A stretch of 64,000 nt of DNA. Source: a bacterium (GTDB taxonomy: Bacteria; SAR324; NAC60-12). Numbering within the stretch: position 1 is the stretch's first letter; each line of letters opens with the position of its first letter. Shown in pieces: positions 3,481-55,796 of the stretch. Below the pieces are notes generated by a model. The model was not told the DNA's origin and searched no databases. It worked only from the letters and a program-made list of their open reading frames with translations. The translations under genes were made by a program, and so were the position numbers. Where the stretch lies: positions 64,001 to 128,000 of the forward strand of contig CBDDTI010000745.1 of NCBI GenBank assembly GCA_965233585.1, read 5' to 3'.

Positions 3481-6189
3481 CTATTCTTTCAAAGACCCAT
3501 CTGCTTTTAACTTCAGCACCCAAACATCGCTTTTACCTGCCCCTTTGCTTTCCGTGCTTCCTGCCACTGCCAAGCCTCCATCTGCCGTCTGAATGATGGA
3601 ACGAGCCACGTCCGAAGACCTTCCACCGAATGTTTTGTCCCAGATCAAATTGCCTGACTTGTCTAACTTCAAAACCCAAACATCACGAAAACCTGCCCCT
3701 TTGCTGCCAGTGTACCCTGCAATGGCAAAGCCTCCGTCTGTTGTCTGAATGATGGAATGAGCCTTGTCCTCATTACTTCCGCCAAAGGTCTTGTCCCAAA
3801 GCAAGTTGCCTGATCCGTCTAACTTCAGCACCCAAAAATCCCAATCACCTGCCCCTTTGCCGTAAGTGTAACCTGCAATGGCAAAGCCTCCGTCTGTTGT
3901 CTGAATGATGGAATGAGCCTTGTCCTCATTACTTCCGCCAAAGGTCTTGTCCCAAAGCAAGTTGCCTGATCCGTCTAACTTCAGCACCCAAACATCTTCT
4001 TGACCTGCCCCTTTGCTGCCAGTGTACCCTGCAATGGTAAGTCCTCCATCTGCTGTCTGGGCGATGGAATAAGCACTGTCCCAATCACTTCCTCCGAATG
4101 TTTTGTCCCAAAGCAAGTTGCCTGACTTGTCTAACTTCAGCACCCAAACATCGCTTTTACCTGCCCCTTTGCTTTCCGTGTACCCTGCAATGGCAAGTCC
4201 TCCATCTGCTGTCTGGGTGATGGAATAAGCCCAGTCCGAATTACTTCCGCCAAAGGTCTTGTCCCAGAGAAGCCTGCCTGACTTGTCTAACTTCAGCACC
4301 CAAACATCACTAAAACCTGCCCCTTTGCTTTTAGTGTAACCTACAATGGCAAGTCCTCCATCTGCTGTCTGAGTGATGGAATAAGCCTTGTCCTCATTAC
4401 TTCCGCCAAAGGTCTTGTCCCAGAGTAAGTTGCCTGACTTGTCTAACTTCAGCACCCAAATATCATTATAAGAGGAATCTTTGCTCGTGACTCCTGCAAT
4501 GGCAAGTCCTCCATCTGCTGTCTGAATGATGGAATGAGCCTTGTCCCTCATATTTCCGCCAAAGGTCTTGTCCCAGTTCGGTAAAAATAGGATTTTTTGT
4601 TGAAGTTTTGCGATGGTGGTTGGGTCTGTACCCGCTTTCTCTAGTTCTTGAATAGATTGCTTGGCTTGTTTGAAGTGTCCTTGGGCGATATAGAGTTCAA
4701 TTTGAGCGATTTGAAAGAATTGAGGGTCGTCTCCTTCAATCTCCCAGTCCAGCAGAAAGTCAGTGGCTTCGTCAAGTTTTTGTTCTCTGATGAGCTTTCT
4801 GAGGTTGGCAAGTTTGAGTTGCCTTGCCTGCAAGTTTTTTTCACTTTGTGAGAATCGTTTGCCCCAAGAACTTGCTAGCTCCCAGTTGTCTTGCATTCTG
4901 TCAGGGTATCCTTGTTGAAAGTTCTGCTCTGCCGCCATCAAATCCAGCTGAATGGCTAAGGCAAACAAAGCCACCACATGCGGATGCTGGGCATGGTGTT
5001 CTGCCAAAGAGTCAAGTTTGTTCCAAAGTGCATTGTCTCGTTCTGATTCAAAGTTGATTCTCTTTTTATTGTCAGAAAGTTGGTAACGGATGGGATTTTG
5101 GTTGTTGATGCGTGTTTGGAGGTCTTGTTGAACGGGGTTGATGACAAAGTTGCGTGCATAGCCTGATTGGGGGTAATCTTTGATGAGCGTTTGCTTAGCA
5201 GATTCTGCTCGGTCGTTTAAGTTTTTCTTTTTGGCAAGCAAGTATCGTTTGTAAAGTTTGACTGCTTGCGGGTCTTCGTTGCTGGCATTGGGTGGAGGTG
5301 GAGGTGGCAAGGCAGTTTGCTGTGCAATTTGTTCTTGTGTGATTGCTGTGTTTTCTGCTTCTTGCGGTTGACTTTGCCAGTGAGTGAGTTGTTCGTCTGC
5401 TTGCTGGCGGAGAGATTCGTCTTGTGTAGAAAAAGGGTTGTTTGCCTGATAGCTTTCTTTGAATTGTTGCCACGTTTGAATCTTGAGTTTGGTAGCAATG
5501 TTGCCTTGTTGCATCTGTTGGATTTTGTCAAAGTTTGCTTGCATCTGTTGTTGCCAGAGTTGCCACTCTTTTTTGATTTGGGTGAGTTGTCTGTTGGCTT
5601 GGTCTTGTTGCTGTGCTTGTTGCAAGAGAGTTGTCAGGTCTTCGTTGGTCTGGGCTTTGGGTGCTTTGCCAAAGCTGAGTCTGATGCCGATGCGGTCGTT
5701 GTCATTGTTATTGTTATTGTCAGGAGTTTTGTCTTTTTGGCATGCGGGAGTGTCGTTGGGATAGGTTTGGCAGATGTCTTTGCGTTTGTCAGGCAAGGCA
5801 CGGTGCAGTGCCTGAAGCATGGCAGGTTGGAATCCGCCTGAATCGCTGGCATAGCCATTTAATCCCTCCCCACGCAATGCGACTAAAACCCCAGATTCTT
5901 CTTGCGAGGCAAAGACTTCATAAAAGCAGGCATCTGCACTGGCACCTCCTGCGGGAATCGGTTGCACTTTCTTCACAAATTGAGAGATTAGCGAAAGCGA
6001 GACGTTCGCCAGCTTCTGCTTGTCAAAATGTTCTGCCTTAGCTTGTACCGCCACGTAGCAGGTTTTTGCCAATGCTGTTGATGGTGTCATCAAGATTGAC
6101 GATGCGACGAATGATGAAGCTGTCCCTAATGAAACAACAAAGGTTTTGGTGATGAAAGTTTTGGTGATGATTTCTTTTAGTGTTGTCAT
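3481..6189 (-). CDS. Secreted multidomain protein: helical/TPR-like middle region and C-terminal 7-repeat beta-propeller
   Basis: 902-aa ORF with a signal-like N-terminus, Q-rich helical region and seven ~52-aa WDKTFGG...DVWVLKLD repeats. Confidence 0.8.
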   Translation of the reverse strand: MTTLKEIITKTFITKTFVVSLGTASSFVASSILMTPSTALAKTCYVAVQAKAEHFDKQKLANVSLSLISQFVKKVQPIPAGGASADACFYEVFASQEESGVLVALRGEGLNGYASDSGGFQPAMLQALHRALPDKRKDICQTYPNDTPACQKDKTPDNNNNNDNDRIGIRLSFGKAPKAQTNEDLTTLLQQAQQQDQANRQLTQIKKEWQLWQQQMQANFDKIQQMQQGNIATKLKIQTWQQFKESYQANNPFSTQDESLRQQADEQLTHWQSQPQEAENTAITQEQIAQQTALPPPPPPNASNEDPQAVKLYKRYLLAKKKNLNDRAESAKQTLIKDYPQSGYARNFVINPVQQDLQTRINNQNPIRYQLSDNKKRINFESERDNALWNKLDSLAEHHAQHPHVVALFALAIQLDLMAAEQNFQQGYPDRMQDNWELASSWGKRFSQSEKNLQARQLKLANLRKLIREQKLDEATDFLLDWEIEGDDPQFFQIAQIELYIAQGHFKQAKQSIQELEKAGTDPTTIAKLQQKILFLPNWDKTFGGNMRDKAHSIIQTADGGLAIAGVTSKDSSYNDIWVLKLDKSGNLLWDKTFGGSNEDKAYSITQTADGGLAIVGYTKSKGAGFSDVWVLKLDKSGRLLWDKTFGGSNSDWAYSITQTADGGLAIAGYTESKGAGKSDVWVLKLDKSGNLLWDKTFGGSDWDSAYSIAQTADGGLTIAGYTGSKGAGQEDVWVLKLDGSGNLLWDKTFGGSNEDKAHSIIQTTDGGFAIAGYTYGKGAGDWDFWVLKLDGSGNLLWDKTFGGSNEDKAHSIIQTTDGGFAIAGYTGSKGAGFRDVWVLKLDKSGNLIWDKTFGGRSSDVARSIIQTADGGLAVAGSTESKGAGKSDVWVLKLKADGSLKE
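3484..4576 (-). repeat. Seven tandem ~156-bp coding repeats (propeller blades)
   Basis: gccaaaggtcttgtcccaaa recurs at 3781 and 3937 (period 156 bp); blades are near-identical at DNA level. Confidence 0.9.
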
Positions 6190-13248: not shown

Positions 13249-14439
13249 ATGGCACAAGAAGACAAAGACTTAGACTTAGACTCATTGGATTTAGATGCTG
13301 ATTTTGATGGGTTGGGAGATGATGACTTTTCTCTTGATGATTCAGGAGACGATGCCCTTGCAGGAGAAGATTTTAACTTTGAAGACTCTGATGAGACTGG
13401 TTTCAGTGTTGATGACCTTGACTTTCAAGAAGCAACAGACTCTGATGATGAAGGCTTAGAACCAGAGCCTTTTGGTTTAGGAGAAGATTTGGAAGAAGAT
13501 TTAGGGTCTTTTGATGATGGGTTGTCGCTTGATGACTTGGAAAGTGGCGATATGGAAGACGTTGGTGCTGAACCAGAGCTTTCTGCACAAGACGAAATTG
13601 GAGATTTTGAAGATGACTTTGCTCTGAATGATGAGGAAGGTGTTGATGAGTTTTCAATGGATGCCGAATCTTCTATACAAGAAGATGAGTTTTCAATGGA
13701 GACAGAGCTTGATGCAAGTGTAGAAGATGAGTTTGTGTCTGACGATCAAGTGATGGAGCTTTCAGAGGAAGACCAAGAACCTTTGCAGTTTGATTTGGCA
13801 GGAGAAGCTGACGAATTAGAGCAAGGTATAGAAGTAGAAAGTTTAGAAGAATTGGGAGATTTGTCTTTAGCTGATGACGAATCAACGCTTCTTCTTTCAA
13901 ATGAAGAAGTTGCAGATGAGTTTTTGGAAGATAGTGAGTCGTTGGGTTTTCAAGATGAACCTTTGGAAGATAGTGAGTCGTTGGGTTTTCAAGATGAACC
14001 TTTGGAAGAAGACGTTTTTAGCGTCGTACAAGAAGGTGGTTTGTTAGACTTAGATAGTCCTTTTGAAGAAGTCAGTGCAAATGACCTTGACCTTGATGAC
14101 CTTTCTTTGATTCCTGAGGAACTAGATGAACCCGCTACCATTGACCCAACACCAGGCTTAGGGCTTGCAACTGCCGAAGTTGAAGAGCGGTCTGAACAAA
14201 AAATTGCCCCAGAACTTTTGATGAGTTTGGAACACGAGATTTCCATAGAAGTAGGCAAAGCCACCTTGAAAGGCAATGAGATTGCAGACCTTTCTTATGG
14301 AAGCGTCATTCTTTTAGACAAGGAGGCAGGAGATGCAGTAGATTTAACCTTGAACGGACAAGTTCTTGCTCATGGTGAAGTGGTCTTGATTAATAATGAC
14401 AGGCTTGGGGTGCGTGTCATCGGTTTAAACGCAGGGTAA
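13249..14439 (+). CDS. fliN: FliN/SpoA-domain switch protein with very long acidic N-terminal extension
   Basis: C-terminal ~75 aa ISIEVG...GSVILLDKEAGDAVDLTLNGQVLAHGEVVLINNDRLGVRV; the preceding ~320 aa are D/E-rich low complexity. Confidence 0.7.
   Translation: MAQEDKDLDLDSLDLDADFDGLGDDDFSLDDSGDDALAGEDFNFEDSDETGFSVDDLDFQEATDSDDEGLEPEPFGLGEDLEEDLGSFDDGLSLDDLESGDMEDVGAEPELSAQDEIGDFEDDFALNDEEGVDEFSMDAESSIQEDEFSMETELDASVEDEFVSDDQVMELSEEDQEPLQFDLAGEADELEQGIEVESLEELGDLSLADDESTLLLSNEEVADEFLEDSESLGFQDEPLEDSESLGFQDEPLEEDVFSVVQEGGLLDLDSPFEEVSANDLDLDDLSLIPEELDEPATIDPTPGLGLATAEVEERSEQKIAPELLMSLEHEISIEVGKATLKGNEIADLSYGSVILLDKEAGDAVDLTLNGQVLAHGEVVLINNDRLGVRVIGLNAG
13924..14008 (+). repeat. 39-bp perfect in-frame tandem duplication (LEDSESLGFQDEP x2)
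   Basis: ttggaagatagtgagtcgttgggttttcaagatgaacct occurs twice in tandem. Confidence 0.9.
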
Positions 14440-15895: not shown

Positions 15896-17623
15896 ATGGA
15901 AAAAAACTCACTTTTAGCAATCGTTTTATCTGTTTTGGTCATTGTTGGTTGGAGCTGGTTATTTCCCCCACCACCCCCTGTTCCGACTGCCCCAACACCA
16001 CAGCAAAGCACCCAAAACCAGACTGCCTCAACCCAACCTACACCCCAGCAGGCACTGCCAACAACTTCAGAAACTGCACCCTTACCGAACTTAAATTTAT
16101 CCTCAAATCAAGCAGAAAACATTACGATTGAAACTGAGCAATACATTGCGACTTTGTCTTCCCAAGGTGGTGTGCTTTCCAGTTTGCTTTTAAAAAATTA
16201 TGAACATTTCAAAAAAAATACAGGATTAGCAAATTGGATTCCACAACTTGAGTGGGTGTTTGGTCAATCTTCTCCTGACTTTCAGACTTCACAAAATCGT
16301 GTGGAAATGGTCAAAAAGCATTTTGACATTCCAACTTTAGGCGTGATTTTCCCAGACTCTCCTGAACTGACAAGAGAATTTAATGCACTGCCTTTTTATA
16401 GCAATACCTCTACTGATGAGCTAAAAACTTCAGATTTTCCCAAACAAGTTGTATTGACCTCTCCTGTGCATCGTGGTTTGCAAGTGATGAAAACCCTCAC
16501 TTTTTCAGCAGACAATTTTATTCTGAATTATGACGTTGCAGTGATCAATCGTTCAGAACAAGCCCGTCCAACTCAAATCCGCTTACAATTAGGAGAGGGC
16601 AGAATCCCTGAACTTGCTAAAAACCGCCCCATTGGTTACACGCACATTGGTCCTATGTATCTCATGGAAGAGGTAGAAACCACAGATTTTGATGAGTTAG
16701 TCGTCAATGATTTTGCAGTGCCACTGCAAGCAAAGTGGTTTGGGTTGACTGACCAATACTTCATTTCTGTTGCCAAAGCATTGAGTCCTATTGAGGGGGG
16801 GGTATTTTCTGCAAAATCTTCATCGGGTCGGTTAGTCAGCGAAACAGAAGCCTATGTCGGTGCTAATTTGCCTGCTGTCATCATTCAACCCAACAAAATG
16901 GTAGAGGCAAAGTTTCTGCTGTATTATGGACCAAAGAACCAAGATGACATGCAAAGTTTTGGAGACAAGCTAGAGCTTTCAATGGATTTGACGCTTGAAG
17001 TGGTGGCAATGCCTTTGCTTCAGTTGCTTCTTTGGATTGAGTCTTATGTTCATAACTACGGTATTGCGATTATTTTATTGACTGTGATTGTGAGAGTGGT
17101 GCTGTTTCCTATTACCTATCGTGGTTCAAAAAACATGAAACGTATGCAACAGCTTCAACCCAAAATCACCAAATTAAGAGACCGCTACAAAGATAAAAAA
17201 GAAAAGCTGAATACAGAGATGATGAGCCTTTTTAAACGAAACAAGGTGAATCCTGTCAGTGGCTGTTTACCAATGCTTTTGCAAATCCCAATCTTTTTTG
17301 GGTTGTATAGTGCGTTGTCTAGTGCAGTAGAATTGAGACATGAGCCATTTTTCTTATGGATGCACGATTTGTCTGCCCCTGATGGCTTTGGTGTGCTTCC
17401 TGTGGCGATGGGAGTCAGCATGTATTTTATTCAACGTATGACCCCAACAGGCATGATGGATCCGATGCAAGTGAAGATGATGCGGCTGTTCCCTTTGATT
17501 TTTACCGTCTTCACTTTTGGCTTTCCTGCAGGACTCACGCTTTATTGGGTCACAAGTAACATTTTGTCCATTGGGCAACAGTATGTCATCAATCGCATCA
17601 AACTCCCTGATGCCAAAGACTGA
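15896..17623 (+). CDS. yidC: Membrane protein insertase YidC
   Basis: NYGIAIILLTVIVR, NPVSGCLPMLLQIPIFF, PAGLTLYWVTSN; rpmH-rnpA-yidC synteny. Confidence 0.95.
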   Translation: MEKNSLLAIVLSVLVIVGWSWLFPPPPPVPTAPTPQQSTQNQTASTQPTPQQALPTTSETAPLPNLNLSSNQAENITIETEQYIATLSSQGGVLSSLLLKNYEHFKKNTGLANWIPQLEWVFGQSSPDFQTSQNRVEMVKKHFDIPTLGVIFPDSPELTREFNALPFYSNTSTDELKTSDFPKQVVLTSPVHRGLQVMKTLTFSADNFILNYDVAVINRSEQARPTQIRLQLGEGRIPELAKNRPIGYTHIGPMYLMEEVETTDFDELVVNDFAVPLQAKWFGLTDQYFISVAKALSPIEGGVFSAKSSSGRLVSETEAYVGANLPAVIIQPNKMVEAKFLLYYGPKNQDDMQSFGDKLELSMDLTLEVVAMPLLQLLLWIESYVHNYGIAIILLTVIVRVVLFPITYRGSKNMKRMQQLQPKITKLRDRYKDKKEKLNTEMMSLFKRNKVNPVSGCLPMLLQIPIFFGLYSALSSAVELRHEPFFLWMHDLSAPDGFGVLPVAMGVSMYFIQRMTPTGMMDPMQVKMMRLFPLIFTVFTFGFPAGLTLYWVTSNILSIGQQYVINRIKLPDAKD

Positions 17624-21692: not shown

Positions 21693-22334
21693 ATGAAATT
21701 CAAAACACTACTTTTACCCCTCAAACGTTTGTTATCAATTATCCCTTCAATGGCAACTTTGTCTTGCACACTGACCTATGACCCTTTAAACCAAGATTAT
21801 GAGAAGATCCAATTCACTGTCAAAGGGCAATGTGCAGAAATGTCTGGCGTGATTGATAGTCAGATCTTGGACAAACTGAAAGCACTCAAAAAAGACGCCC
21901 CTCAAGTTCATACCATCATCATGCTTGACGTACCCGGGTCATTAGATGACGATGCCAATCTTGAGGCTGCTGATTACATTCGTAGCAAAGGGTTCAACAC
22001 ACATTTACCTGCACATGCCGAGATTTCTTCTGGTGGGACAGACTTCTTTTTGGCAGGGGTTCAAAGGAGTGTTGAAAAAGGAGCAAAAGTAGGTGTACAT
22101 TCTTGGGCAGGACAAGACGATGACGGCAACTGGATTTTTGCCAAAGACATTCCCAAAGATGATGAATCTCACCAACTATTTCTTGACTATTACAAAAAGA
22201 TAGGAATCTCTGAAGATTTTTATTGGTTCACTTTAGACGCAGCACCTGCTGATGACATACATTGGATGAACTGGGAAGAGATGCAAAAATATTCAGTCTT
22301 CAATTCATCAACCCCTCCCAACTGCAAAGAATAA
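21693..22334 (+). CDS. Putative lipoprotein with ClpP/crotonase-like fold (COG3904-like)
   Basis: Lipobox-like ATLSC; MSGVID, PGS.DD.ANL, SSGGTDFFLAG..R, GVHSW motifs. Confidence 0.65.
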   Translation: MKFKTLLLPLKRLLSIIPSMATLSCTLTYDPLNQDYEKIQFTVKGQCAEMSGVIDSQILDKLKALKKDAPQVHTIIMLDVPGSLDDDANLEAADYIRSKGFNTHLPAHAEISSGGTDFFLAGVQRSVEKGAKVGVHSWAGQDDDGNWIFAKDIPKDDESHQLFLDYYKKIGISEDFYWFTLDAAPADDIHWMNWEEMQKYSVFNSSTPPNCKE

Positions 22335-22378
22335 AGCCATTCTGGAAAGCCTGATTCCTCACTTTTTCCTCACTCCCC

Positions 22379-22790
22379 CGTCATTGCTCACCTTGACCCG
22401 CAATCTCCCTTCGTTTCATTCTGTTTTCACTCGTTTTTGAGATTCCGTGTCAGGCACCGAATGACAATAGTTGTCATTCCTGCGAAAGCTCCGAATCTAT
22501 GCTTGGTTTGGTGATAGATTCCGTGTCAGGCACGGAATGACTTAGAAGGTGCAGGCTTATCTTTTCGTCATTGCGGGCTTGACCCGCAATCTCACTCTTG
22601 TTTTTTGAGATTCCGTTCAAGCAAGGAATGACGGAGGGCGTTTGCAGGCTTGACCTGCAATCTCTTCTTTTCTCAATCTTCCCTTTTTCTTTTCTTCGTT
22701 GTAGGCTCGTTTTTTTGTCATTCCTGCGAAAGCAAGAATCCAGTCATGTAGGAATCTGTGCTATGTTGACGATGGATTCCGTGTCAAGCA
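22379..22790. repeat. Cluster 2 of CGTC-tagged palindromic elements, abutting the broken cas1
   Basis: cgtcattgcgggcttgacccgcaatct, gtcattcctgcgaaagc, gattccgtgtcaggcacggaatgac; the last element stops mid-palindrome at 22790. Confidence 0.88.
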
Positions 22791-23233
22791 GAGTGAAGGC
22801 AGATTCTATTAATTGTTTGCTGGATATTGGCTATACTTTGTTGTTTAACTTGATTGAGGCTCTTTTGCAGATTTACGGGTTTGATTTGTATCGTGGTGTG
22901 TATCACAAAGAGTTTTTTCAACGCAAGGCGTTGGTTTGTGATTTGATAGAGCCGTTCCGTCCTTTGATTGATTACAGGACACGCAAGGCGTATCAGCTGG
23001 GACAAGTGAAAGAAGAAGATTTTAAGGTCATCAACAATCAATATAAACTTTTTGGCAAAGACGCCAAGCCTTACACTCAACTTTATATGGAGGTTTTGCT
23101 GGAGTATAAGATAGAGATGTTTTTGTATATGCAAAGTTATTATCGTTCTTTTATGAGGGACAAGCCCATTGCGGACTACCCTGTTTTTAGCATGAGGCGT
23201 CAGGCAAAGAATGAAACCAAGCAAATTCAATAG
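22790..23233 (+). pseudogene. cas1: 3' half of a type V-A-associated Cas1; N-terminal half missing
   Basis: RVKADSINCLLDIGYTLLFN...GFDLYRGVYH...ALVCDLIEPFR is the Cas1 catalytic C-terminal region. Upstream in-frame sequence is REP DNA. Confidence 0.88.
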
Positions 23234-23245
23234 AGGAGGTATGAC

Positions 23246-23521
23246 ATGTTGATTGTGACGTATGATATTTCAGAGACACCTTTGCGGACAAGGTTCTCAG
23301 AGTTTCTTAAAAAATTTGGCTACCGTCTGCAATATTCAGTCTTTGAGATTGAAAATAGCAAACGAATTTTGGACTTGATTGAAACGCAGATAGAGACAGA
23401 CTTTAGCAAATCGTTTAGCCAGTCAGACAGCATCATCATTTTTAATTTAAGCCAACAATGCAAAATCACACGTTTTGGTTATGCCAAAAATGATGAGTCT
23501 GATTTGATAATGATCTCTTGA
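23246..23521 (+). CDS. cas2: CRISPR-associated Cas2
   Basis: MLIVTYDIS...LKKFGYRLQYSVFE; GGAGG RBS; lies between cas1 and the array. Confidence 0.95.
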   Translation: MLIVTYDISETPLRTRFSEFLKKFGYRLQYSVFEIENSKRILDLIETQIETDFSKSFSQSDSIIIFNLSQQCKITRFGYAKNDESDLIMIS

Positions 23522-23794
23522 CTTGTGAGATAAGAACGTTTAGAATGGCTGACTTGTCTATTAGGCTAAAGTCTATCGTGCTTTTTTAGGCAATTTTGGT
23601 CGCACTTTTAAAAGCCTTCTTTGGGTCTTGACTGTTGTCAATGTGTGGGGTGCGAAGTGAGGAGTGATACCGCTGATGGATCGCTTCTTTCTTGAAAAAT
23701 TGCAAACCTCGGTCTTAATGGCAGAAATCGCTCAAAATTCGCACTTTTGTCTTTGTTTTTTCACCAAGATATGCGGGTTGCAGGCATGTTATCT
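23522..23794 (+). promoter_or_regulatory. CRISPR leader
   Basis: Non-coding 273 bp between cas2 and the first repeat; the only variant repeat is at the far end of the array. Confidence 0.75.
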
Positions 23795-26716
23795 GTCTAA
23801 TAGACTTATTTAATTTCTACTGTTGTAGATACAGATTAGTTTTCAATTTGTCAAAAAAGTCTAATAGACTTATTTAATTTCTACTGTTGTAGATATTTTG
23901 TTTCCTTTAGTTTAAATTTTGTCTAATAGACTTATTTAATTTCTACTGTTGTAGATAAAAAATGAAACATGTTGTTCTCCTTGTCTAATAGACTTATTTA
24001 ATTTCTACTGTTGTAGATTAATTGGGACTTCAGGCAGTGAATCGTCTAATAGACTTATTTAATTTCTACTGTTGTAGATGGATTCTCTGAAAGCTGGAAA
24101 AGTAAGTCTAATAGACTTATTTAATTTCTACTGTTGTAGATATCATCTGTGTCTTTCATTAGATGATGGTCTAATAGACTTATTTAATTTCTACTGTTGT
24201 AGATCCTTTAGTTTTATGGTTGTTAAAATCATGTCTAATAGACTTATTTAATTTCTACTGTTGTAGATTTGAATCGGATTGACTGATTCAATGTTGTCTA
24301 ATAGACTTATTTAATTTCTACTGTTGTAGATGCTTCAGCTTTTTCTCGCTCTTGATAAAGTCTAATAGACTTATTTAATTTCTACTGTTGTAGATCAAAT
24401 ATTGAGACTAATGATGTTAATGTCTAATAGACTTATTTAATTTCTACTGTTGTAGATAAATGACAGTTTGCCGTTGATTCATCTGCGTCTAATAGACTTA
24501 TTTAATTTCTACTGTTGTAGATCATAGTGCATAAATTGCAATATTCGTGTCTAATAGACTTATTTAATTTCTACTGTTGTAGATTTCACAGAAAAAGAAA
24601 GGACTAATTTGTCTAATAGACTTATTTAATTTCTACTGTTGTAGATATGAGGTATTCTACTCTAATACCGTCGTCTAATAGACTTATTTAATTTCTACTG
24701 TTGTAGATACAGACCTACGCCTTTAAATTTTGATGTCTAATAGACTTATTTAATTTCTACTGTTGTAGATTTGGTGTAAACAATGCAGGATTTGCCTGTC
24801 TAATAGACTTATTTAATTTCTACTGTTGTAGATAAACCTAGATGCGTCAAAATTTAAGGGTCTAATAGACTTATTTAATTTCTACTGTTGTAGATACTTA
24901 TCTTATATTCTTTTCAAGTCGTCTAATAGACTTATTTAATTTCTACTGTTGTAGATAGGTAAACATGAAAGAAAAACTAAACGAGTCTAATAGACTTATT
25001 TAATTTCTACTGTTGTAGATAACAGCTCCAACCTAGTAATATAGTTTTTGTCTAATAGACTTATTTAATTTCTACTGTTGTAGATAACACTAGTTTTACA
25101 TCATACATATTGTCTAATAGACTTATTTAATTTCTACTGTTGTAGATATAGTCCGCCTTTTAATAATATTCAAAGTCTAATAGACTTATTTAATTTCTAC
25201 TGTTGTAGATGTGGTATGAGTCTTTTGGTTTTGAGCGTCTAATAGACTTATTTAATTTCTACTGTTGTAGATATCTATAAAAACCTTCAAGACTTAGAAG
25301 TCTAATAGACTTATTTAATTTCTACTGTTGTAGATAGAAGTCAGGAAAATAGTTACTTGACCGTCTAATAGACTTATTTAATTTCTACTGTTGTAGATAG
25401 AAGTCAGGAAAATAGTTACTTGACCGTCTAATAGACTTATTTAATTTCTACTGTTGTAGATCACGTCCAAACCAGTAATCTTAAAATGTCTAATAGACTT
25501 ATTTAATTTCTACTGTTGTAGATAGTGGGGGGTCTGGGGGATTCATCCCCCGTCTAATAGACTTATTTAATTTCTACTGTTGTAGATCTACCCCGTCCAA
25601 CACCAACCCGATAGCGTCTAATAGACTTATTTAATTTCTACTGTTGTAGATGTGATCTTTGCACTCTCGCTAAACTTGTCTAATAGACTTATTTAATTTC
25701 TACTGTTGTAGATAGTACTCAACCCTAAAACGATCTATTGGTCTAATAGACTTATTTAATTTCTACTGTTGTAGATAAATATGTATATCATCAACCCGCT
25801 AATGTCTAATAGACTTATTTAATTTCTACTGTTGTAGATATAGCTACCCAGCCCCCATCATACCCACGTCTAATAGACTTATTTAATTTCTACTGTTGTA
25901 GATGCCATCATGCCTGCCTGTTGATGAGAGTCTAATAGACTTATTTAATTTCTACTGTTGTAGATTGCACTGAATAGTGAGAGTAAAGTCGTGTCTAATA
26001 GACTTATTTAATTTCTACTGTTGTAGATCGTTTAACAGATTAAACAAAATCAAGGTCTAATAGACTTATTTAATTTCTACTGTTGTAGATATTCCTGAAA
26101 TGTTTTTGATTTTTCGAGTCTAATAGACTTATTTAATTTCTACTGTTGTAGATATACAGAAGACATTGACATATATCTAGTCTAATAGACTTATTTAATT
26201 TCTACTGTTGTAGATAAATCAAAGAAGGCGTAAGCCACTATGGTCTAATAGACTTATTTAATTTCTACTGTTGTAGATTGGGATGATGATACAGATGACT
26301 CTTTTGTCTAATAGACTTATTTAATTTCTACTGTTGTAGATCGTTTAACAGATTAAACAAAATCAAGGTCTAATAGACTTATTTAATTTCTACTGTTGTA
26401 GATATTCCTGAAATGTTTTTGATTTTTCGAGTCTAATAGACTTATTTAATTTCTACTGTTGTAGATATACAGAAGACATTGACATATATCTAGTCTAATA
26501 GACTTATTTAATTTCTACTGTTGTAGATAAATCAAAGAAGGCGTAAGCCACTATGGTCTAATAGACTTATTTAATTTCTACTGTTGTAGATTGGGATGAT
26601 GATACAGATGACTCTTTTGTCTAATAGACTTATTTAATTTCTACTGTTGTAGATATAGTTTTTACCTTTATTTAAAGTTAGTCTAATAGACCTATTTAAT
26701 TTCTACTGTTGTAGAT
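23795..26716 (+). CRISPR. Type V-A (Cas12a-type) array: 47 x 36-nt repeat GTCTAATAGACTTATTTAATTTCTACTGTTGTAGAT, 46 spacers of about 25-29 nt
   Basis: Counted directly. The 3' 19 nt AATTTCTACTGTTGTAGAT is the conserved Cas12a crRNA handle. The terminal repeat (26681-26716) has one T>C change. Confidence 0.98.
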
Positions 26717-26880
26717 AAGATATGGGGTGAAATTATAATAGAGAAATTTTTGCATTTTCAAATTTTTTCAAAATAAGCTAACAGTAAAAAATCAGTTTCC
26801 ATAAAATTATGTTACTTAATTTTTATCTTTAAATCTCAAAACCTAAATCATCTTTTTTAGCATCAAGTAAGCCTTTTTAT

Positions 26881-27132
26881 TTATATTTTTTCAAACATAA
26901 TTTCAAATAATTTTAAAAAAATTTTCAGAATTTTATAGTCTCTTTCGTATAGTTCAAAGATGTTTTTATTTGCTTTGAATAAGTTACGCTTTTTACAATC
27001 TTTGACTAAATTATCAATAGCGTCTGGTTTCTCTTTTGAATTTGAAATCTTGTGTTCCCATTCAATAGAATCTTTCAATCCATAATAGGCATATGAATCA
27101 TCAGAATTGACCAAAAGTTTGTTTTCTCTCAA
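26881..27132 (-). pseudogene. Very AT-rich ORF fragment of unknown function downstream of the array
   Basis: 83-aa K/I/N-rich ORF with TTG start and an in-frame stop shortly upstream; surrounded by decayed coding-like DNA. Confidence 0.35.
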
Positions 27133-27256
27133 TAAACTTGAAGGAGATAAGTCCCTTTCTATAAATCAAGACGTTGTAACAATACCTGTAACAAATCAAC
27201 AATGAAAAAACTTTTAAAACCTCAAGAAACTTTTGATGTGAAGAAGTATGGTTTTA

Positions 27257-27355
27257 GCTTAAGTGTTCTTAGCTTGAGAACAGCGGTCAAGCTTAAATGG
27301 TTGAGACATTGTTTTGAGCGCTTAAGCGTTCTTAGCTTGAGAACAGCGGTCAAGC
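27257..27355. repeat. 36-bp direct repeat pair (1 mismatch) separated by a 27-bp unique insert
   Basis: gcttaag(t/c)gttcttagcttgagaacagcggtcaagc at 27257-27292 and 27320-27355; the second copy contains the stop and last codons of the dehydrogenase gene. Confidence 0.92.
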
Positions 27356-30177
27356 AGATAAAGGATAGAAAAATAAGGAATCCCGCTTTGTTCGCTTAAT
27401 CCAATTTCACATGAAATACTGTTAGAAAATCCTTCTTGACACGTTTGGACTTCACCTTTGAGATTGATAAGAGCTTGCTCATTCAATTCAGGATTGAAGA
27501 AGCCTTTGTCTCCCGCAAAACCACAACACGTTACTTCTTTAGGTTCAACAATTTCGCTTGCACAAAGCTGGGCAATATGTCGTAAGTCTTGACCGATTCC
27601 TAGCTTTTGACCACTGCATACATTGTGAAGAGCCACCTTCGTTTGTCTCTTAGTGATTTGAAACTTGTCAAGAAGGAATTTCCTAGCAAATTTAACTGCG
27701 TCATAGATGTTCAAGCGGCTGTCCAAAGTGTTCAACATGGTATAAGTGCAAGGGCTAATATCAACGCAGATTGGATAAACACCCTGATTGGAAGCCACTA
27801 AAAGAGCCTGTTCCAGTTCTTGATATTTGATTGATGCAGCCTCATCAAATCCCTTTGAAGAAAAAGCCATACCACAACAAAGCGATTTTGTATTTTCAGG
27901 ATAAACGACCTCATAATTTGCTTTTTCAAAAAGAGAGTGCATCACCTCTGGTAAGGTTCTTTGGTCTTGATGATAACTTGTAGGAGCAAAGAGCCGAGAA
28001 AGACAACTGGGAAAATAAACGACTTTTTGTGTGTGAAGTGAAGCAGAAATTTTGGGAGTTTTGAAAGGTTGAATCCTGCTACTGGGAGTGTATTGCAAAA
28101 AAACGGGTGATCCTAAATGTTGATGGCTTTTTTGAGTCAGTGCTTTCAAATTTCGCTTTCCTATGACACTAGAAACCAAGTCTATTGTTTTAAGACCTAC
28201 CTTTGCTCCAAAAAGCACAGAACTAAAATTTCTGGCAATCAGTTTTGCTATTTTGTGTTGTGTTGAAGAATGACGTTGTTTTTTGAGAACTTTGATCAAT
28301 TTTCCTGTGTCAATAGAAACTGGGCAGACCGTCTCACAAAGTCCGCAAGTCGCACAAGTGGCATTGCCATCATACTGATAGACTGCATCTAGCTTTTTGA
28401 ATGCTTCTGGGCTGTACTTTGCCTTAAAATCTTCTAGGTAACGATTGATTACAATTCTTTGTCTAGGTGTGAAGGTTAGTTGTTGTGAAGGACAAACCCG
28501 CTCACAAAAACCACATTCAATACATTTATCAATCAAATCGTGGGTGGTGGGCATTTCCTTAAAATTCTTGAGATGGACTTTTTGGTCATCATTCAAGATG
28601 ACACCCGGATTGATGAGATTGTCAGGATCAAAAAGTGCCTTGACTTCTTTCATCAACTGATATGCTTCTTTTCCCCATTCTTGTTCCACAAAACCTGCCA
28701 TATTGCGACCTGTTGAATGCTCGGCTTTGAGAGAACCATTCAGTTTAAGAGTCATTGCAACTACATCTTTTATGAAGGCTTCATAACGTTCTATTTCACT
28801 AGCAATGGTGAAATCTTGACAAATGACAAAATGGACATTCCCATCTAGCACATGACCAATGACGATTCCATTGTTATAGCGATGCTTGACAAACAAATCT
28901 TGTAGTTGTTCTACGCCAGAATTTAATGATTCAATAGGAAAAGCAATGTCTTCAATCAAATAGGTTGTTCCTAGTTTTCTAATCTGACCAAGAGAAGGCA
29001 TGATGCCTTTTCTGATTTTCCAGTAATTTCCATAAATCTTGGCATCTTTTGTAAATTCTATGGGTTGTAAATGGTTCAAACCTTCAAGGTTTTGAGTGAT
29101 AGTTTGAATCTGTTGGTTTAACGTGTCTTGTTGATTAGAAACGGTTTGCACCAATAATGCACAAGCTCCTTCAGGTAATGTTTTAAAATAACTAGGTGCA
29201 ATAGGTTGGTCTTCAGCCGAACGCAGAGCGGAACGATCCATCAATTCTGCGGCATTGACAATGCTTCTGATTGTGTTGAGTTTCTCTGCTGCCAGACAAG
29301 CGGTACTGACAGAATCAAAAATGACCAATGCACTAGCTTTATGAGTGGGTTCATCTACTGTTTCCAAAATCACTTCTAACAAAACTGCTAGAGTTCCTTC
29401 TGCTCCTACAATCAGGTGTTTCAAAATTTCAAAGGGGTCTTCAAAATCAACAAAAGCATTGAGGCTATAACCTGTCGTGTTCTTGATGGCATACTTTCTT
29501 TGAATTTTTTCTTTCAATGGTTGATTCTTCTCAATCCTTTGCGCAATGTCTGCTAATCCTTTTAATAAATGTTGATGAGTTTTTTGAAAAGATGCCTTGC
29601 TGTCTGCATCAGCAGTATCCAAAACACTTCCGTCAGCAAAAGCTAACTTGGCGTCCTTGATTGTCTGATAGCTATTTTGAGTGATTCCACAACACATGCC
29701 ACTGGCATTATTGCTGACAATACCACCAATCATCGCTGAAGCAAGAGAAGCAGGGTCTGGTCCGATTTTCTTCCCTAAAGGAGCTAACAGCTCATTGACA
29801 TATTCGGCTCTCAAACCGGGTTCTAAACGGATCGCTTTGCCTTCTTCTAAAATCTCATAATTTCTAAAGCCCCAATCTAGTGCAATCAAAACCGATTCAC
29901 TCAAGGTTTGACCACTTAAAGATGTTCCACCTGCCTTGATAGTGAAAGGCAAATGAAATTCCAAGGCAGTCTTAATACAGAGCATCAATTCTTTTTGATT
30001 GAGCGGTTTTAGCACAATTTGGGGAGTGATTCTATAAAGCGAAGCATCTGTTCCATACGCCAAAGTATGCACAGGGTCAGAAAAGACGCGTTTTGTGTCC
30101 ATTTGACTACGAATGGACTGTTCAAAATTTTGGTAAGATTGCATTGATTTTGATGAGGTTTCGCGAGCAAGAGACAT
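27322..30177 (-). CDS. FAD-binding and Fe-S-binding oxidoreductase, Fe-S D-lactate dehydrogenase type
   Basis: AGGTSLSGQ, GPDPAS, GGIVSNNASG, SLKAEHSTGRN, two ferredoxin motifs (CIECGFCERVCP, CATCGLCETVCP), CCG domains. Confidence 0.88.
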   Translation of the reverse strand: MSLARETSSKSMQSYQNFEQSIRSQMDTKRVFSDPVHTLAYGTDASLYRITPQIVLKPLNQKELMLCIKTALEFHLPFTIKAGGTSLSGQTLSESVLIALDWGFRNYEILEEGKAIRLEPGLRAEYVNELLAPLGKKIGPDPASLASAMIGGIVSNNASGMCCGITQNSYQTIKDAKLAFADGSVLDTADADSKASFQKTHQHLLKGLADIAQRIEKNQPLKEKIQRKYAIKNTTGYSLNAFVDFEDPFEILKHLIVGAEGTLAVLLEVILETVDEPTHKASALVIFDSVSTACLAAEKLNTIRSIVNAAELMDRSALRSAEDQPIAPSYFKTLPEGACALLVQTVSNQQDTLNQQIQTITQNLEGLNHLQPIEFTKDAKIYGNYWKIRKGIMPSLGQIRKLGTTYLIEDIAFPIESLNSGVEQLQDLFVKHRYNNGIVIGHVLDGNVHFVICQDFTIASEIERYEAFIKDVVAMTLKLNGSLKAEHSTGRNMAGFVEQEWGKEAYQLMKEVKALFDPDNLINPGVILNDDQKVHLKNFKEMPTTHDLIDKCIECGFCERVCPSQQLTFTPRQRIVINRYLEDFKAKYSPEAFKKLDAVYQYDGNATCATCGLCETVCPVSIDTGKLIKVLKKQRHSSTQHKIAKLIARNFSSVLFGAKVGLKTIDLVSSVIGKRNLKALTQKSHQHLGSPVFLQYTPSSRIQPFKTPKISASLHTQKVVYFPSCLSRLFAPTSYHQDQRTLPEVMHSLFEKANYEVVYPENTKSLCCGMAFSSKGFDEAASIKYQELEQALLVASNQGVYPICVDISPCTYTMLNTLDSRLNIYDAVKFARKFLLDKFQITKRQTKVALHNVCSGQKLGIGQDLRHIAQLCASEIVEPKEVTCCGFAGDKGFFNPELNEQALINLKGEVQTCQEGFSNSISCEIGLSEQSGIPYFSILYLLDRCSQAKNA

Positions 30178-54841: not shown

Positions 54842-54919
54842 AAGGTGTTGTCAAGCAATAGTCTTACGTCAAGAGTATTACAAAAAGTCTGTTTTTTCCA
54901 ATTTTTTATACCCTTTCCC

Positions 54920-55750
54920 CGTCATTTCTTACCTTGACCCGCAATCTCTCTACTGCCGTCATTCGGAGCGAAAGCTCCGAATCCATGCTATGTTGACGAT
55001 AGATTCCGTGTCAAGCACGGAATGACGGGAGCATCATTGCTCATTTTGAAAACCGTCATTCCGCACTTGATGCGGAATCTCAAAAGAAGTGAACGAAGGA
55101 AAAAAGAGAGATTGCAGGTCAAGCCCGCAATGACATTTTTCAAGGTGAACCATGACGAAAAGACAAGCCTGCAACCTCCCTGTCATTCCGCACTTGATGC
55201 GGAATCCACTAGCAGTTAGAGGATAGATTCCTGTCGTGCCTCTCTCAGTCATTCCGCACTTGATGCGGAATCTCAAACGCCCTCCGTCATTCCGCACTTG
55301 ATGCGGAATCTATTACCAAACCAAGCATGGATTCCTGCTTGCGCTCCGAATGACAAAGACAGAGGCAACAATGACCAAAGGCAAAACTGCAACACTCACG
55401 TCATTCCGCACTTGATGCGGAATCTCAAAAAAAGTGAACGAAGAAAAAAAGAGAGATTGCGGGTCAAGCCCGCAATGACGCGGGAATGAGAAAAAGAGCA
55501 AAATCCCCTGTCATTCCGCACTTGATGCGGAATCTCAAAAAAAGGCGTTGTTGGCAAAAAGATAAGGAAGATTGCGGGTCAAGCCCGCAATGACTTTTTT
55601 CAAGGTCAGCAATGACGAAAAGACACGCCTACAAAACCTCTCAGTCATTCCGTGCCTCTCTCAGTCATTCCATGCTTGATGCGGAATCTCAAAAAACAAA
55701 AGTTGTTTAGGAAAAAAATAAGAGATTCCGTGTCAAACGCGGAATGACTT
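54920..55750. repeat. Cluster 3 (largest, about 15 units) of CGTC-tagged palindromic elements
   Basis: Many gtcattccgcacttgatgcggaatct copies alternate with inverted agattgcgggtcaagcccgcaatgac copies. Confidence 0.92.
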
Positions 55751-55796
55751 GAACACAAGCCATCGGTGACTCAAAGAGTAGATTGCAAAGTGTTGG

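Follow-up and report, generated by a model that had tools for sequence, protein, structure and literature searches.

In the DNA analysed here (a stretch of 64 kb, hereafter the window), the end of a dehydrogenase gene is present twice, as two 36-nt copies placed around a unique insert of 27 nt, and we consider this 36 + 27 + 36 structure to be probably a natural fossil of off-target spacer integration by a type V-A Cas1-Cas2 complex. Off-target integration is the best explanation, since both lengths match those of the resident CRISPR array, the flank is identical to the end of the array leader and stands in register with the unit, the unit is symmetric about its own centre, the insert is unique, and the array lies nearby. 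The unit is a scar and not a functional array, because the repeat sequence of the array is absent from it and the cas genes of the locus have decayed.

Results

The two copies of the unit (Table 1) agree at all but one of their 36 positions (T at 27264 against C at 27327), and their starts are 63 nt apart, which gives the insert its 27 nt. Since the bases immediately outside both ends differ, these lengths are exact, at 36 nt for the duplication and 27 nt for the insert. These results confirm an earlier description of the locus made from the sequence alone (hereafter the sequence-only reading), in which two 36-bp copies with one mismatch were said to flank a unique 27-mer; its placement of the structure at about 540 bp from an array with a 36-bp repeat and a mean spacer of about 27 also agrees with our measurements, as copy 1 begins 541 bp past the last array repeat, and the array has a repeat of 36 nt and a mean spacer of 26.7 nt. 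The duplicated segment, with its exact boundaries, has the length of the resident repeat, and the length of the insert is the second commonest among the array spacers (16 of 46), which range from 25 to 29 nt.

Table 1. Coordinates of the features at the duplicated gene end, the CRISPR array and the cas locus (positions in the window)
Feature	Position	Strand	Remarks
cas1 fragment	22598-23233	+	C-terminal part only
cas2	23246-23521	+	91 aa; TIGR01573 at 44.4 bits (cut-off 24.5); PF09827
Leader	23522-23794	+	273 nt; last six bases (23789-23794) TTATCT
Resident CRISPR array	23795-26716	+	47 repeats of 36 nt, 46 spacers of 25-29 nt
AT-rich stretch between last repeat and copy 1	26717-27256		25% GC, against ~39-42% in neighbouring genes
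Copy 1 of the 36-nt unit	27257-27292	-	Non-coding; putative leader-distal pseudo-repeat; one substitution relative to copy 2, at 27264
Insert (putative spacer)	27293-27319		27 nt; unique in the window
Copy 2 of the 36-nt unit	27320-27355	-	Native 3' end of the dehydrogenase gene; putative leader-proximal pseudo-repeat
FAD-binding and Fe-S dehydrogenase gene (GlcD/GlpC-like fusion)	27322-30177	-	951 aa; left intact by the proposed event
Leader-like hexamer	27356-27361	-	Reads TTATCT; abuts the first base (G) of the unit

Block shuffling of the window (20 replicates) gave best 36-nt self-matches of 22-24 of 36 positions at offsets of 58-69, against the 35 observed, and a chance origin of the paired 36-mers is excluded. 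Outside the zones of repeat elements, no other A-B-A structure or scar was found in the window; moreover, a comparison with 23 unrelated loci (~445 kb) found no comparable repeat-insert-repeat structure, except for two 24-25-nt repeats in one locus (L016). The 63-nt period covers only 99 nt, that is, 1.57 units, and a 63-bp tandem duplication was considered and rejected, the insert being unlike either flank (P 0.05-0.6). On the plus strand, a 65-aa open reading frame (27202-27399) runs antisense over the whole scar, with the 63-nt addition in frame; no homologue of it was found in a large protein collection (115 candidates compared, none scored), and it is probably spurious.

The dehydrogenase matches the GlcD, YdiJ and GlpC profile models, all of them under their curated cut-offs, and its homologues are named in their sources as D-lactate dehydrogenase or as FAD-binding and (Fe-S)-binding domain protein. 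Copy 2 consists of the last 10 codons of the gene, the stop codon and two more bases, and the encoded protein ends in ...LDRCSQAKNA. Both of the nearest homologues (P0003, with 66% identity, and P0004, with 53%) retain the motif ...YLLDRCS and vary in the last five residues, and a D-x-C-S/T tail was seen in most of 21 more distant dehydrogenase loci examined. The scan of genome contigs for the dehydrogenase yielded 23 loci, all with at most 47% identity, and the nearest homologue, at 66%, came from the protein search. Since the tail that it encodes is conserved in homologues, the 36-mer is host coding sequence, and the conserved LDRCS tail supports the earlier view that one copy is the real 3' end of the gene and that the unit is host sequence. 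A dispersed REP-like family was also considered for the 36-mer and rejected, as the window holds no further copy with fewer than 14 mismatches on either strand (14 being the next-best match) and the unit encodes the conserved tail; the 36-mer is native gene sequence, and not a dispersed element. The dehydrogenase protein is unchanged because the duplicated segment holds the last 10 codons and the stop codon. The same reading had called the event harmless on the ground that the end of the reading frame is regenerated, and this stands for the protein; the scar itself is presumably neutral.

On the minus strand, the hexamer beside copy 2, together with the first base of the unit (TTATCT + G), is identical to the real leader-repeat junction at 23789-23795; in the plus-strand orientation, the length of the leader-suffix match is zero. 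For a suffix match of at least 6 nt in either orientation, the empirical P is 4.3e-4 (60,179 window positions). The heptamer TTATCT-G occurs nine times on the two strands of the 64-kb window, both junction sites included. The location of this flank implies a pseudo-leader inside the gene and on the minus strand, which is the opposite of the orientation assumed in the sequence-only reading.

The 36-mer also has dyad symmetry about its exact centre, where 11 of 18 pairs are complementary (P = 1.5e-3, the frequency of such a score in the window), and none of the neighbouring registers, 24 even and 12 odd, scores above 9. Pairing is strongest at the ends of the unit (positions 1-4, 6, 8 and 9). 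The corresponding scores are 10/18 for copy 1 and 7/18 for the real array repeat, the ends of which are symmetric. As the unit forms no stable hairpin, recognition by a protein complex with two-fold symmetry suits this dyad better than a DNA structure does. About eight features were tested, of which the leader hexamer and the dyad passed at P <=1.5e-3; both were chosen post hoc, and the two statistics outlast a simple correction for about eight tests, yet they need discounting.

Folding of the transcript bears on whether the two copies are a selected functional duplication, such as two protein-binding sites or a structured 3' UTR of the dehydrogenase mRNA, or else a two-repeat mini-array of another CRISPR type. 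The 141-nt minus-strand RNA that spans the unit reaches -24.7 kcal/mol (z = -2.6; a single one of 200 shuffles did as well), and its advantage over the shuffles comes from pairing between the two quasi-palindromic copies. The single 36-mers, on the other hand, gave z values of -0.6 and -0.8, with 54 and 38 of 200 shuffles as good, no terminator-like site was present in 26600-27600, and the search of 22000-28000 against Rfam gave no match. Furthermore, the variation of the last five residues in the two nearest homologues tells against selection on the segment, and the 35/36 identity argues for a recent duplication rather than for conserved paired sites. A selected structure or a mini-array of another type is, on this evidence, unlikely, with a slim chance of being correct.

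Integrative elements typically leave direct repeats that regenerate the 3' end of a gene. The structure described here is similar in having direct repeats, one of which regenerates a gene end, and it could be read as an attL/attR remnant of such an element, nearly all of which was deleted so that 27 bp were left. It differs in that there is no element and just 27 bp between the repeats, and that no integrase or recombinase was found among the 19 open reading frame translations scanned near the site (the window has 45 open reading frames of at least 150 aa). In addition, one copy alone would be expected after normal excision, a spacer-sized residue between repeat-sized cores would be an extra coincidence, and the leader-like hexamer and the centred symmetry would be left unexplained. 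An att remnant is unlikely as well, and its chance is slimmer still.

The pseudo-repeat itself has no likeness to the true repeat. The two sequences are identical at 7 of 36 positions on the plus strand and at 11 of 36 on the minus strand, which is the level of chance; the first six bases agree at four and three positions, respectively, the last six at one and two, and the terminal TCTA motif is missing from the pseudo-repeat. The similarity between the GCTTAA start of the unit and the GTCTAA start of the array repeat, to which attention had been drawn before, thus comes to 4/6 within a unit that is at chance level as a whole, and it does not hold up as evidence. As regards a functional array of the resident V-A system, the pseudo-repeats do not carry the repeat sequence of that system.

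The resident array is well preserved, with 46 of its 47 repeats identical and one change in the last. Its 46 spacers, of which 40 are distinct, measure 26 nt (19 spacers), 27 nt (16), 28 nt (7), 25 nt (2) or 29 nt (2), with a mean of 26.7 nt. Within the array, a 313-bp block made up of five repeat-spacer units is doubled in tandem at 26029-26654, and one spacer is present twice in succession at 25336-25425; these internal duplications are the result of recombination within the array, and not of acquisition. We take the 3' half of the array repeat to be the Cas12a crRNA handle.

The cas locus is incomplete. The cas1 fragment matches positions 182-316 of 317 in the type V Cas1 model TIGR04329 (E 7.7e-58; 196 bits, under the 300-bit cut-off) and positions 180-279 of 283 in PF01867, and the assignment to subtype V-A is based on this Cas1 family and on the 36-nt repeat. 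Neither cas12a nor cas4 was found among the 19 distinct translations scanned, which included all four of at least 900 aa (out of the 45 open reading frames of at least 150 aa in the window). The array is therefore attached to a decayed adaptation module and is effectively an orphan array. REP-like palindromic dispersed elements (~25 nt, in several variants) are clustered at 22340-22700 and at 54900-55760; the former cluster lies directly upstream of the cas1 fragment, where the cas operon breaks off, which suggests that the palindromic elements mark or mediated the loss of cas12a, cas4 and the 5' part of cas1. In the AT-rich stretch on the other side of the array, an 83-aa open reading frame (26881-27132, minus strand) has no family match and is possibly a gene remnant carried in with the CRISPR segment.

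The source may be a metagenome-assembled sequence, as the lineage appears to be uncultured, and an assembly or sequencing artefact could give a false local duplication. Nevertheless, the copies differ at one base and lie around 27 unique bases, which is not something that assemblers invent, and the dehydrogenase reading frame, the flanks and the 2.9-kb array of 47 repeats are coherently assembled. An artefact is very unlikely.

The insert contains 33% GC, and the spacers average 35%. The insert ends in the same 9 nt as the spacer at 25211-25236, with which 20 positions align if two gaps are allowed (anchored P ~9e-4; local-alignment P ~0.02), in the plus orientation, that is, opposite to the leader-like flank. 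As far as the sequence goes, the shared 9 nt hint at a spacer-like origin of the insert. Other sources within the window were tried and rejected: for the interior of the gene (29067-29095), which gave the best window alignment, P was 0.33 and not significant, and for the leader, the cas region and the trailer there was no significant alignment, the longest exact k-mer in common with the window being 10 nt.

Searches for a protospacer of the 27-mer gave best E values of 3 among phages and 0.6 among plasmids, both at the level of chance. No convincing protospacer was found for the whole array among phages and plasmids either; the best phage matches had E values of 0.3-0.9, and the best plasmid match (43 nt, 88.6%, E = 0.02) was to a Campylobacter plasmid. 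The lack of protospacers is unsurprising, since the lineage is uncultured. The SAR324-like lineage of the window is poorly sampled; its YidC (15896-17623) has 85% identity to one metagenome protein and ~44-52% to proteins of the SAR324 cluster.

The main alternative to off-target integration is a duplication plus filler unrelated to CRISPR, in which illegitimate or homology-facilitated recombination, or break repair, joined a second gene end 27 bp downstream; such an event could date from the acquisition of the AT-rich CRISPR segment, and the values of 36 and 27 would then be a coincidence. Copy 1 does lie at a compositional boundary, between the 25% GC stretch and the genes of ~39-42% GC, the cas locus has been rearranged (cas1 truncated, repeat elements at 22340-22700), and the pseudo-repeat is unlike the true repeat, all of which would suit a duplication of this kind. 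It nevertheless needs four coincidences, namely a duplication of 36 nt, an insert within 25-29 nt, the leader hexamer (P = 4.3e-4) and the dyad (P = 1.5e-3); moreover, no template for the insert was found in the window, and the ~445 kb of other loci contain no comparable structure. We regard a CRISPR-unrelated origin as possible but doubtful.

Some further features of the window were noted away from the scar. A minus-strand open reading frame of 902 aa (3481-6189) contains near-perfect tandem repeats of 153-156 nt, especially at 3709-4424, with a weak Kelch-like match, and may encode a repetitive surface or secreted protein; beside it, the open reading frame at 3-2834 has fibronectin type III domains. 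A 39-nt tandem repeat (13922-13971) lies inside a FliN/SctQ-like open reading frame of 396 aa (13249-14439). The FliM- and FliN-like matches of this region are far under the curated cut-offs, and for this reason we call the switch or secretion-ring proteins divergent.

Discussion

How the type V-A Cas1-Cas2 complex integrates spacers has been described for Francisella novicida U112, and in that report the leader side is attacked first, integration depends on positions -3 to -1 of the leader and 1-6 of the repeat, and a ruler puts the second cut at a distance of one repeat length (PMC13034035). According to the same work, the repeat's first six bases are indispensable to Cas1-Cas2 in vitro, Cas1 recognises a TCTA motif at both repeat ends that is required in vitro, and full-site integration was obtained with prespacers of 27-29 nt only (PMC13034035). 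The event proposed here would resemble canonical V-A integration in the leader-side attack coming first, the role of the last bases of the leader, the ruler spacing of one repeat length, the prespacer of ~27-29 nt and the symmetric ends (PMC13034035; PMC9419969). It is unlike the canonical reaction portrayed there in that the target is not a CRISPR repeat, has no TCTA and matches three to four of the first six repeat bases, and in that the product has no crRNA handle and cannot serve Cas12a.

From the observed geometry, the native origin of the unit, the leader hexamer, the centred dyad, the unique insert and the decayed cas locus, we infer which enzyme acted, in which orientation and in what sequence of steps, and that the scar is neutral, as follows. 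A Cas1-Cas2 complex loaded with a 27-nt prespacer would have bound on the minus strand where the dehydrogenase gene ends, at a place where TTATCT followed by G would mimic the real leader-repeat junction. The leader-side attack would have taken place at the TTATCT/G junction, and the built-in ruler would have set the second attack 36 bp away on the other strand, possibly aided by the symmetric ends of the segment. Repair of the gaps would then have duplicated the 36-bp segment on either side of the insert. The resulting scar would have been neutral, with the protein unchanged, and the pseudo-repeats, having no Cas12a crRNA handle, would be expected to give no guide RNA. The decay of the cas operon, with the loss of cas12a, cas4 and the 5' part of cas1, would have come afterwards.

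Several observations count against off-target integration. The pseudo-repeat is unlike the true repeat and, by the strict in vitro rules of Francisella, would be a poor site. No protospacer for the 27-mer was found among phages and plasmids, and the likeness of the insert to the spacer at 25211-25236 runs counter to the orientation of the leader-like flank. Moreover, cas1 is truncated and neither cas4 nor cas12a stands by the array, so that the enzyme has to be assumed for the past or for elsewhere in the genome; besides, proximity to the array is not predicted by the known mechanism. The earlier proposal of a fossil off-target acquisition by this V-A integrase is thus retained as the best explanation, now with the leader hexamer and the dyad in its favour, although the integrase is not intact at this locus, where the C-terminal part of cas1 and cas2 are what is left.

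Events of this kind have been reported under experimental conditions. In Escherichia coli, over-expressed type I-E Cas1-Cas2 is reported, in papers that cite the study, to have integrated spacers off target and thereby to have created new repeat-spacer-repeat units, or "neo-CRISPR" loci (Nivala, Shipman and Church 2018). The scar shares with those loci, as so described, the spacer-sized insert, the repeat-length duplication of host sequence and the position outside the array, and it differs in being a natural and fixed event, of class 2 type V-A, with a 36-nt ruler and in an uncultured bacterium. In a study of Pyrococcus furiosus, the off-target sites of Cas1-Cas2 in vitro were non-CRISPR DNA sharing features of the repeat or of the leader junction (PMC6698737). 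Those were plasmid events in vitro, with the system of an archaeal type I/III host, whereas here a single fossil in vivo is concerned. Furthermore, one preprint describes the evidence for natural off-target integration in two other species as circumstantial. In the main texts of the literature searched, we found no report of a natural off-target integration scar of a type V system. The scar is a probable further example of the kind of event known from E. coli type I-E and from P. furiosus in vitro.

Casposons use Cas1-family integrases and have target-site duplications of ~14-15 bp. The scar is similar to their insertions in that staggered cuts by a Cas1-family enzyme would be repaired into direct repeats, and unlike them in its 36-bp duplication and 27-bp insert, which match CRISPR adaptation.

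A further proposal, for which we see about an even chance, is that the structure represents the natural and fixed birth of a CRISPR-like unit, made from the end of a host gene by a class 2 V-A complex in an uncultured SAR324-like bacterium. Were this so, the structure would document in vivo what the integrase requires: the hexamer, the symmetric ends and the 36-bp ruler would suffice for targeting, TCTA would be dispensable, and the distance of 541 bp would hint at a local search for targets.

Conclusion

In brief, the structure suggests a simple genome-wide screen, applicable to other systems, for repeat-length duplications around spacer-length inserts beside a leader-like flank. If the scar is genuine and natural, adaptation complexes do at times insert spacers into host genes under natural conditions, and this example would reveal target features that are sufficient in vivo. 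It would further mean that repeat-spacer-repeat units can come from ordinary host sequence, which bears on the origin of arrays and of their repeats.
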